Below, in pieces: positions 9,106 to 10,390 of a DNA stretch of 64,000 nucleotides; positions within the stretch are counted from its first letter, which is position 1; each line of letters begins with the position of its first letter. A program made the position numbers and the translations under genes. Under the pieces are notes generated by a model. The model searched no databases. It was not told the origin of the DNA and saw only the letters and a program-made list of their open reading frames with translations. The stretch spans positions 91-64,090 of the forward strand of contig CAYNSX010000008.1 in NCBI GenBank assembly GCA_964400165.1, in the 5' to 3' direction. This DNA is from an uncultured bacterium. GTDB lineage: Bacteria; Armatimonadota; Hebobacteria; CAYNSX01.

Positions 9106-9620
9106 CGCGCCATCAGTTTGCCGAAGCGGTAGCGGAGCACTTGGGCGGGCTGCTAGCGCGGGAGTTCGGCGGCGCGGTGCGGGTGACGGCGGGGGTGCAT
9201 CTGCCGGTGGCGGTGCGGTGCGTTCCAGCGTCCAGCGGCGGCTGGGAGTGGCGGGTGGAGACGGCGCCGGTGGAGATTGTGGTGCATGCGTCGGGTGAAG
9301 TTTCGCTGGCCGGGGTGACGACGCCGGTGCCGCTGGTGTATGCCGTCCTCGCCCCTTCCGACGAGCCGGCGGACCTCGCCGCGCTCGGGCAGGCGGCGGC
9401 GGGGGTGCGGGCAATCTTCCCGCACGCGCAGGGCTACCTGCTCGGCGAGGCGCTGGAGCCGAAGGCGGCGCTGGCGCTGCCGGGGTTCGACCGGGTGTAT
9501 CCGCAGTGGGAGCATGAGCACCTGGGCAAGCGGCGGGTGTGGGTGGATGTGCGGCGGCACCTGATGCACCTGGAGTTGTCGGGGGTGTTGCCGGGCGGGC
9601 AGTTTGGAGACCGGGAATGA
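9102..9620 (+). CDS. Hypothetical protein (172 aa), first gene of a three-gene insertion between carA and carB. C-terminus GGQFGDRE is shared with the downstream Fic protein
   Basis: ATG overlaps the carA stop (ATGA) and the stop overlaps the Fic start. No recognisable motif. Confidence 0.6.
   Translation: MTRHQFAEAVAEHLGGLLAREFGGAVRVTAGVHLPVAVRCVPASSGGWEWRVETAPVEIVVHASGEVSLAGVTTPVPLVYAVLAPSDEPADLAALGQAAAGVRAIFPHAQGYLLGEALEPKAALALPGFDRVYPQWEHEHLGKRRVWVDVRRHLMHLELSGVLPGGQFGDRE
9592..9620 (+). repeat. 29-bp direct repeat copy 1 (cgggcgggcagtttggagaccgggaatga) spanning the 3' end of the hypothetical gene and the RBS/ATG of Fic
   Basis: Identical except 1 nt to 10362-10390. Confidence 0.75.
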
Positions 9621-10390
9621 ACGACGCATTGAGTAACCTGTTGCAGCGAATCGACGAGAAGCAAGAGCGGGTGGCCGCGCGGCGACCGCTGCCGCCGGAA
9701 GTGGTCGCCAACTTGCGTGAGGTGCTGGGCGTCGAATGGACCTACGAGAGCAACGCGATCGAGGGGAACTCGCTGACGCTCGCCGAGACCCGGGTGGTGG
9801 TGCTCGACGGGTTGACCATCGGGGGGAAGTCCGTGCGCGAGCACCTCGAGGCGACGAACCACTGGGCGGCGCTGCAGCACCTCGAGACGATGACGCAAGC
9901 CGGGCCGTTGAGTGAAGACGATGTGCTCACGCTCCACGGATTGATCCTGCGGGGCCTCGATGACCGGAACGCCGGGCGCTATCGCCGCGTGCAAGTGGAG
10001 ATCTCCGGCAGCCGGCACCTGCCGCCGCCGCCCGGCGCGGTTCCCGGGCGGATGCGGGAATTGCTGCAGTGGGCGAACTCGGAAGCAGCCGAGGCCCGGC
10101 ATCCCGTCCTGCGAGCGGCGGAGTTCCACCAGCGGTTAGTGGACATCCACCCCTTCGTTGATGGCAACGGGCGCACCGCTCGCCTGGCGCTGAATCTGAT
10201 CTTGCTGCGGGCGGGCTATGTCCCCGCCATCATTCCGACGGCGCGGCGCGCCGAGTACATCGCTTCCATCGAGGCGTGGCGGCGCAAGGAGGCCGAACCG
10301 TTCGAGCGACTCGTCGCCGAGGAAGAGGAGCGGACCCTCGACCGGTACTTGCGGGCGCTGTCGGGCGGGCAGTTTGGAGACCGCGAATGA
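9617..10390 (+). CDS. Fic family protein, class II (N-terminal inhibitory motif SNAIEGN; active-site HPFVDGNGRTAR), probable AMPylase
   Basis: Canonical Fic motif HxFx(D/E)GNGRxxR and the auto-inhibitory [S/T]xxxE[G/N] helix in the same polypeptide. Confidence 0.85.
   Translation: MNDALSNLLQRIDEKQERVAARRPLPPEVVANLREVLGVEWTYESNAIEGNSLTLAETRVVVLDGLTIGGKSVREHLEATNHWAALQHLETMTQAGPLSEDDVLTLHGLILRGLDDRNAGRYRRVQVEISGSRHLPPPPGAVPGRMRELLQWANSEAAEARHPVLRAAEFHQRLVDIHPFVDGNGRTARLALNLILLRAGYVPAIIPTARRAEYIASIEAWRRKEAEPFERLVAEEEERTLDRYLRALSGGQFGDRE
10362..10390 (+). repeat. 29-bp direct repeat copy 2 (cgggcgggcagtttggagaccgcgaatga) at the Fic 3' end and SIR2 start
   Basis: See copy 1. Confidence 0.75.

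Follow-up and report, generated by a model that had tools for sequence, protein, structure and literature searches.

How did two copies of the same 29-bp sequence come to flank one gene exactly, in the middle of a pyrimidine biosynthesis operon, so that two neighbouring proteins end with the same peptide and the genes behind them start from the same ribosome-binding site? This question is raised by a 64-kb stretch of contig CAYNSX010000008.1, in the following called the window, which is metagenome-derived and belongs to an uncultivated lineage. In this window, the carbamoyl-phosphate synthase genes carA and carB are separated by an orphan gene of 172 amino acids (aa), here termed hyp, by a gene for a Fic protein, and by a gene for a SIR2_2-domain protein (all on the plus strand), and the repeat covers the hyp-Fic and the Fic-SIR2 junctions. 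A preliminary description had taken the repeat for the footprint of a cassette insertion or replacement that delivered Fic. Our comparison with related loci indicates that the repeat is very probably a joint formed by recombination, at a polymorphic site for cassettes, in which the translation-initiation region of carB was used again, and with moderate confidence we attribute the stacking of Fic and SIR2 to a single unequal crossover in one step.

A direct repeat at two consecutive gene junctions

The two copies are located at 9592-9620 (CGGGCGGGCAGTTTGGAGACCGGGAATGA, hereafter J1) and at 10362-10390 (CGGGCGGGCAGTTTGGAGACCGCGAATGA, hereafter J2), on the plus strand, and 28 of their 29 positions are identical. 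J1 consists of the tail of hyp (9102..9620), a GGAGA Shine-Dalgarno sequence and the ATGA in which the start of Fic (9617..10390, 257 aa) overlaps the stop of hyp. J2 is a copy of the hyp tail that is fused in frame to Fic, followed again by GGAGA and by an ATGA that combines the Fic stop with the start of SIR2 (10387..11538, 383 aa). In each copy, the GGAGA lies 6-7 nucleotides (nt) ahead of the ATG, and hyp and Fic share the terminal GGQFGDRE. The preliminary description had claimed the exact flanking of Fic, the common C-terminus and the common ribosome-binding anatomy for the next gene, and our reading of the sequence confirms all of this. The copies differ at one base only, a synonymous change (CGG/CGC), and therefore the repeat is a copy made at the DNA level and not a convergence on the peptide.

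A pattern search that tolerated up to 3 mismatches found exactly two copies of the 29-mer in the window, and none appeared in 100 dinucleotide-preserving shuffles. Among the fetched loci, which amount to about 1 Mb, the orthologous hyp tails were the only matches at up to 6 mismatches. This speaks against a dispersed repeat: a repetitive extragenic palindromic (REP)-like or generic coupling element would occur in many copies at unrelated junctions, and we found two copies in 64 kb with none expected.

Inverted repeats were absent from both junctions, with no inverted-repeat arms at 9617-9640 or 10340-10362. The RNA folds at all junctions are no better than those of shuffled sequences (z -0.3 to +1.2) and include no hairpin; attC-like, REP-like or coupling-hairpin elements at the junctions were rejected on these grounds. 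At the 3' end of SIR2, a possible third copy of the junction was rejected as well, as CATTTAGACCG and CAGTTTGGAGACCG are less similar than random windows are on average. Without gaps, the repeat pair can be extended to 50 nt at 82% identity (9583-9632 versus 10353-10402). A longer repeat with a 12-nt deletion is possible (TTGTCGGG[GGTGTTGCCGGG]CGGGCAG versus CTGTCGGGCGGGCAG); it is indistinguishable from this ungapped extension, and likewise from a native Fic end such as …RYIRAVGG (P0024).

Origin of the repeat in the hyp tail and the carB start

From which gene does the repeated sequence originate? The C-termini of all five hyp homologues follow the pattern …HLELSGV(L/V)xGG(Q/E)F(G/S)(D/G/E)…, with GGQFG(D/G/E)R in four close lineages and GGEFSDQ in the outgroup L003. 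This conservation indicates that the tail is native to hyp and that the copy at the end of Fic is a transplant. The residues past GDR vary with whichever gene comes next. On the side of Fic, the aligned family members share the sequence up to …LDxYLxA and then have short tails that vary, and the Fic of the window reads …LDRYLRAL and then SGGQFGDRE. Neither the Fic family nor FICD matches the protein beyond residues 245-249 (the FICD match ends at 247-249), so that DNA derived from hyp apparently begins directly where the Fic fold is complete; the last 9-10 residues (SGGQFGDRE) are encoded by J2 and are apparently not native to Fic. The joint between Fic and the hyp tail carries the G-rich stretch CTGTCGGGCGGG, and the repeat itself opens with the G-rich CGGGCGGG. 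It could be that CTGTCGGGCGGG of Fic is microhomologous to CCGGGCGGG of hyp.

The function of the sequence is suggested by relatives in which hyp is directly followed by carB. These empty alleles (L005/L006 and L007) read …GGGCGGGCAGTTTGGAGACCGCG ATG CCG CGT GA. Their hyp ends with GGQFGDRDAA*, its tail holds a GGAG 6 nt before the carB ATG, and its stop is located 8 nt inside carB, with an overlap of hyp and carB of 11 nt. The J2 bases 10363-10386 are identical to the hyp-carB junction of L005 in 24 of 24 positions. The comparison shows that the 29-mer corresponds to the predicted native translation-initiation region of carB, which lies within the last 8-10 codons of hyp. The claim that the repeat marks a cassette insertion or replacement thus holds in so far as the repeat is a rearrangement scar at a polymorphic site, but the repeat was not brought in by a cassette, as it is the native 3' end of hyp.

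The alignment (blastn) of L005 with the window ends at 9616 and resumes at 11527, i.e. at the start of carB (11528..14788), which is 92% identical between the two. Relative to the empty allele, the window therefore contains an insert of 1910 bp (9617..11526) that comprises Fic, J2 and SIR2. At the right-hand joint, G ATG CCG CGT GA (11527..11538), the start of carB is overlapped by the former hyp frame and stop, which now serve SIR2: this gene has no stop of its own and finishes in the former hyp codons GAT GCC GCG TGA inside carB. The GGAG of the hyp tail is gone from the region upstream of the window carB. All genes of the string overlap, with ATGA at the carA-hyp, hyp-Fic and Fic-SIR2 junctions and with 11 nt, ATGCCGCGTGA, at the SIR2-carB junction.

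Allelic states among relatives

We compared 5-6 loci, which are located mostly on short metagenome contigs (L001 from JGI 3300010391, L002 from ERR14788471, L003 from ERZ23498356 and L004 from ERZ27280000); the L005/L006 contig has 203 kb. Four states were found at the same site, namely hyp-carB (L005, L007), hyp-Fic (L002, L003), hyp-SIR2 (L004) and hyp-Fic-SIR2 (window, L001). The hyp-carB site inside the pyrimidine operon is thus polymorphic among closely related uncultivated bacteria. The preliminary description had suggested to look for an empty site with hyp directly joined to SIR2, and such a join does exist in L004, in addition to the alleles without either cassette in L005 and L007. 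In a tree of hyp, the four close lineages are star-like, and L003 falls outside.

In L002, whose hyp is 86% identical at the nucleotide level, the Fic ATG takes the exact position of the carB ATG (GGAGGGCGGG ATG AGT…). In the outgroup L003 (hyp 77%), hyp is followed by a spacer of 21 nt and then by Fic. In L004 (hyp 88%), hyp is joined straight to the SIR2 gene, and the junction follows the sequence of the empty allele through GATGC and then continues with GAGGATTGATAC, which includes its own GAGGA Shine-Dalgarno sequence, before the ATG. The J2-SIR2 junction of the window equals this L004 junction minus 15 nt. Taken together, the left boundaries of Fic in L002, of SIR2 in the window and of SIR2 in L004 all lie within 0-5 nt of the carB start codon. 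The combined arrangement of the window is found identically in L001, a second, independently assembled contig, which differs from the window at 11 positions, all outside hyp-Fic-SIR2.

Composition and divergence of Fic and SIR2

The two inserted genes differ markedly in their base composition. The G+C content at third codon positions (GC3) is 0.87-0.91 in carA, hyp, carB and pyrB and 0.86 in Fic, and it is 0.56 in SIR2 and 0.62 in the SIR2 fragment of L004. The overall G+C content of SIR2 is 0.53, and the composition profile falls from about 0.70 to about 0.52 exactly over its open reading frame (ORF), so that the DNA of foreign composition is ORF-exact and extends from the SIR2 ATG to the carB ATG (10387-11527).

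The divergence between alleles agrees with this distinction. Compared with the window, the Fic 5' end of L002 is 88.8% identical, with 90.8% for carA and 86.3% for hyp, and in L003 the respective values are 74.7% for Fic, 77.8% for carA and 78.5% for hyp. As the 5' end of Fic has diverged like its flanks and as its GC3 is host-like, Fic is a long-standing, vertically inherited resident behind hyp. The assumption that Fic was the gene delivered to the locus is therefore not supported; Fic stands behind hyp in L002 and even in the outgroup L003, and the gene of foreign composition is SIR2. In L004, carA and hyp are 91.5% and 88.6% identical to the window, but the SIR2 5' end only 65.8%. Over the 66 codons compared (window 10387-10584 versus L004 653-850), the non-synonymous divergence dN is 0.38 and the synonymous divergence dS is saturated, whereas dS of the flanks in this comparison is 0.32-0.46. 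SIR2 is thus of foreign composition, with two alleles that are apparently far older than the host lineages, and the presence of two such alleles at the same junction suggests either independent capture or an exchange of old alleles at one spot.

Proposed stacking by unequal crossover and alternative explanations

How could the doubly filled allele have formed? In the scenario that we favour with moderate confidence, Fic and SIR2 would each have entered first as ORF-exact inserts at the carB start codon, which would have resulted in hyp-Fic-carB and hyp-SIR2-carB alleles. One unequal crossover between these two alleles would then yield the allele of the window. Such a crossover would be of a short-homology or illegitimate type, for example homology-facilitated illegitimate recombination (HFIR) after DNA uptake, in which carA/hyp or carB would serve as homologous anchor, and either parental allele could have been the recipient. 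The crossover would have linked the G-rich microhomology CGGGCGG(G) at the 3' end of Fic with hyp sequence that lies about 29 nt ahead of the hyp end. By this one joint, both cassettes would be stacked, the junction duplicated and the hyp tail put onto Fic, and at the same time SIR2 would be provided with a ready GGAGA ribosome-binding site at the right spacing, so that the string stays translationally coupled to carB. A dedicated recombinase would not be involved, and the direct repeats would now permit a precise loss of Fic.

In agreement with an HFIR-type event, both parental configurations exist in nature, hyp-Fic in L002 and L003 and hyp-SIR2 in L004, and the hyp-carB arrangement is found in L005 and L007 as well. 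The base at the lone mismatch also fits a two-parent model, as J1 has the G of the hyp-Fic junction of L002, and J2 has the C of the L004 and L005 junctions. Several observations weigh against this scenario. Both copies in the window read GAATGA (9613-9620 and 10383-10390), and the junctions of L002, L004, L005 and L007 read GATG. The extra A, which lies between the Shine-Dalgarno sequence and the ATG, is common to both copies and absent from every other lineage, and it points to a need for either two parents from the window's own population, a later homogenisation or conversion, or a duplication of a single junction. Furthermore, no contig of a relative that lacks SIR2 extends to the Fic 3' end, and the copy of the hyp tail may thus predate SIR2; the relatives are few; the star-like hyp tree of the four close lineages does not allow to order gains and losses; and the microhomology is inseparable from the duplicated segment itself.

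Which other histories could lead to the same arrangement? The duplication might be old: J2 could have been made when Fic first entered the hyp-carB site, for example by a Campbell-type integration of a circle with short homology, which would give an ancestral hyp-J-Fic-J-carB. SIR2 would later have been inserted between J2 and the carB ATG, and the empty and the hyp-SIR2 alleles would be the result of precise J x J deletions of Fic. We consider this plausible but less likely than the one-step stacking. Fic is present in the outgroup and diverges like its flanks, and the alleles without Fic could be losses, which direct repeats render seamless. J2 is identical to the carB-proximal junctions of L005 and L004, as expected of orthologues, the G/C pattern fits a relation of J1 to the L002 junction and of J2 to the L004/L005 junctions, and the L004 junction equals the J2-SIR2 junction of the window plus 15 nt. 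The difficulties lie in the unusual first event that is needed to generate a duplication of 25-29 bp without recombinase, in the absence of any observed Fic-J-carB allele, and in the age of the copies, as the hyp tail of L003 is strongly diverged and an old pair of copies should have drifted unless it was constrained or converted. The shared extra A would then require two identical events or gene conversion. The extra A would also fit another history, in which a mobile Fic cassette entered a hyp-SIR2 locus and a staggered cut of a transposase or integrase type generated a target-site duplication of 29 bp, since a derived A common to both copies is expected if one junction was duplicated within the lineage, and since a hyp-SIR2 allele does exist (L004). 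This is nevertheless highly improbable, as terminal inverted repeats and hairpins are missing at the ends of Fic, the segment consists of nothing but the ORF, neither a transposase nor an integrase is encoded over about 9 kb upstream and about 23 kb downstream, and Fic has been passed on vertically together with the locus, with a host-like GC3. Target duplications of 25-29 bp are also untypical of transposons, which usually generate 2-15 bp, and a transposon-type duplication, as had been considered in the preliminary description, therefore is not a convincing explanation.

The 29-mer could also belong to a dispersed class of REP-like or translational-coupling modules, or selection could have acted on both proteins independently in favour of GGQFGDRE as a functional C-terminal peptide. 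It is true that the sequence is in frame in both genes, that it supplies a Shine-Dalgarno sequence at proper spacing, and that its 24/24 identity in three lineages that are about 12% diverged exceeds the average conservation. However, only the two window copies and, elsewhere in about 1 Mb, the orthologous hyp tails were found, the copies agree at synonymous sites and thus represent a DNA copy, the residues past GDR follow the next gene, and the tail is predicted to be disordered (pLDDT 25-31). In addition, the genuine REP-like palindromes of this genome have another sequence. We therefore regard a generic or selected element as extremely unlikely. An assembly artefact, in which the assembler joined coexisting hyp-Fic-… and hyp-SIR2-… alleles via their common junction, deserves hardly any credence either. 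The metagenome source and the natural occurrence of alternative alleles would make such an error conceivable, but the same arrangement is found in the second contig L001, and a chimera formed via J2 would still need a real copy of the hyp tail behind Fic. Moreover, current assemblers finish with k-mers that exceed a repeat of 24-29 nt in length.

A more far-reaching interpretation would be that the hyp tail and the carB start together form a recombinase-independent “landing pad” that repeatedly captures ORF-exact, promoter-less genes of defence type, or that hyp is a conserved partner, i.e. a sensor or regulator, of swappable effectors. The main basis for this is that three insert boundaries lie within 5 nt and that two ancient SIR2 alleles occur at the same spot. 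We regard this as unlikely. If a landing pad existed, the captured genes (Fic and at least two very divergent SIR2 alleles of low G+C content) would be served by the ribosome-binding site that belongs to an essential gene, and the translation of carB would depend on the captured genes, which would amount to a retention by operon embedding.

The encoded proteins and the genomic surroundings

The orphan hyp is located between carA and carB in every relative, and its last codons are the source of the repeat. It has no match in Pfam, NCBIfam or PADLOC. Only 5 homologues were found among 5.8 billion proteins, with one 50% cluster among 1.84 billion representatives, and a hyp profile found nothing in GTDB genomes. 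The ratio dN/dS is 0.15-0.2, with the empty-site genome included, and hyp is thus under purifying selection even if no cassette is present behind it. The AlphaFold prediction has a mean confidence (pLDDT) of 48.9, which is too poor for a fold search. Residues 45-105 of hyp (GGWEWRVETAPVEIVVHASGEV…) resemble the repeat of a protein with a DUF1508/YegP domain (L089 651-1085, P0127), with a profile E-value of 8.6e-4 and a pairwise BLASTP E-value of 4e-7.

Fic is recognized by the Pfam Fic model (4.7e-25, 88.7 bits at a cut-off of 24), and its best PDB matches are FICD-type AMP-transferases (1e-44), with a coverage of residues 31-249 only. The motifs HPFVDGNGR (178-186) and SNAIEG (45-50) are located in invariant alignment columns. 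They correspond to the HPFx(D/E)GN(G/K)R active site and to the N-terminal inhibitory (S/T)xxxE(G/N) motif of class II Fic proteins, and by the scheme of Engel et al. 2012 the protein thus is a self-inhibited class II Fic. The PADLOC models SoFic and PDC-S04 match at 1e-29 to 1e-31, at the domain level only. The SoFic defence equivalog was rejected, with 25.7 bits at an NCBIfam cut-off of 550. The nearest full-length homologues are 49-56% identical, and those with a source name include metagenome-assembled genomes (MAGs) of Caldilineales and Chloroflexota. Homologues were searched with a threshold of E <= 1e-40, at which short Fic fragments of close relatives would escape.

SIR2 contains a SIR2_2 domain above the Pfam gathering score (3.5e-12, 47 bits at a cut-off of 24.5), with visible GSG, TTNWD and LHLHGH motifs, and PADLOC SIR2 models match as well. 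The search for close homologues among 5.8 billion proteins found none but SIR2 itself, and there was no PDB sequence match. The start of the gene is called differently, with 317 aa by JGI (L001 2718-3671) and 383 aa by NCBI. An N-terminal block VKEYLPW…VILFLGSG is conserved with L004, which supports the 383-aa form and a start at the ATGA of J2.

The string is embedded in a pyr operon, with carA (7975..9105, carbamoyl-phosphate synthase small chain, Pfam CPSase_sm_chain and GATase) as upstream core gene and carB (large chain, by ORF and annotation) as downstream core gene, both on the plus strand; the order pyrR-pyrB-pyrC-carA-hyp-carB can be read in L006. The neighbours of the site include lepA, a PKD-domain gene, pyrD and, upstream, pyrR, pyrB, pyrC and carA, and downstream of carB follow a pilin-like gene, AhpC/TSA genes, glycine-cleavage genes, an aminotransferase gene, a Mur ligase gene and the gene for valyl-tRNA synthetase. 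All neighbours in the range searched for integrases and transposases are housekeeping genes. A consensus scan of the region 5000-15500 found no promoters and three terminator-like matches, which is below shuffle expectation, with a consensus that may not fit this phylum. The sole terminator-like match within the insert is on the minus strand, at 10441-10454, inside SIR2.

Some further observations concern the vicinity of the locus. In the empty-site genome, L006 18281-20641, about 3.4-5.8 kb downstream of carB, contains TniB-like genes, genes for Mu-transposase C-terminal domains and an RHS-repeat fragment. In the window, the scanned stretch downstream of carB (15339-34348) contains housekeeping genes, and the transposase genes of L006 have no visible link to the cassette site. 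Three REP-like G/C palindromes (CCCCTCCCC-N6-GGGGAGGGG) follow each other just past carB (14750-14903), another is found at 2525-2548, and L005 has a 34-nt match at 3413-3446. Their sequence differs from that of the 29-mer. About 190 nt of the window in this region cannot be aligned to L005. Among the GTDB species representatives, the lineage has no close relative, and the best carA identities are 54-56%, with Chloroflexota/Dehalococcoidia MAGs as top matches.

Relation to known systems and implications

HFIR (de Vries and Wackernagel 2002; Prudhomme et al. 2002; Meier and Wackernagel 2003, as cited in PMC5361080; also PMC3240628) and stacking by displacement have been documented for other loci, and HFIR has been proposed for stacked effector-immunity arrays and for Rhs displacement (PMC5361080; PMC3240628). 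In the displacement of Rhs/CdiA C-termini, with its orphan modules, and in the effector-immunity arrays of the Vibrio cholerae type VI secretion system (PMC5361080), alternative modules are found behind a conserved upstream sequence, as in our case, and a new module is joined via the conserved stretch, with a short repeat left before each stacked module. Our locus differs in that the conserved stretch amounts to only the last ~29 nt of an unrelated orphan gene, which also act as the ribosome-binding site for an essential biosynthetic gene. Its modules are complete genes with their own translation instead of toxin tips with immunity genes, and nothing is displaced or orphaned. With HFIR, the locus would share one long homologous anchor (carA/hyp or carB), an illegitimate joint at a short G+C-rich microhomology and the insertion beside conserved DNA. 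Unlike in the HFIR cases, the event is here inferred from sequence only, and the donor was apparently another allele of this locus and not truly foreign DNA.

Promoter-less, ORF-sized units that are stacked at one site behind an upstream promoter, with an occupancy that varies among relatives, are also characteristic of integron cassettes. However, we found no attC-like palindrome or hairpin at the 3' ends of the cassettes and, in the ranges given above, no adjacent intI with attI, and the repeated unit is the coding sequence of a neighbouring gene. The defence hotspots between core genes, such as those of P2/P4 (PMC9122126), share with our locus the fixed flanks, the variable content of Fic or SIR2 type and the existence of empty and differently filled alleles, but here a start codon within a housekeeping operon forms the site, the inserts match ORFs exactly and are coupled in translation, and no prophage, satellite or island is involved. 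Direct target repeats flank the inserted segment also in the target-site duplications of transposons and casposons, which differ by their transposase or Cas1 and their terminal inverted repeats, none of which were found at this locus; the flanked segment is the Fic ORF alone, and this gene is the older resident. The stacking itself is thus known, and what appears to be new is an operon-internal, start-codon-centred and coupled cassette site, at which the putative ribosome-binding site of an essential gene serves as the junction.

The series of natural alleles is unusually complete for metagenome data, and it does not imply any new molecular machinery. It provides an example of short-homology cassette stacking outside of toxin and integron systems, of a C-terminal tail that was moved between proteins as a by-product, and of a direct repeat that makes an older gene, Fic, precisely excisable. 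With one empty, two singly filled and one doubly filled state, the series shows how an essential biosynthetic operon can take up accessory genes of defence type without the help of any promoter, terminator or mobile-element machinery, as the inserted genes re-use, and here duplicate, the region in which translation of the essential gene behind them is initiated.

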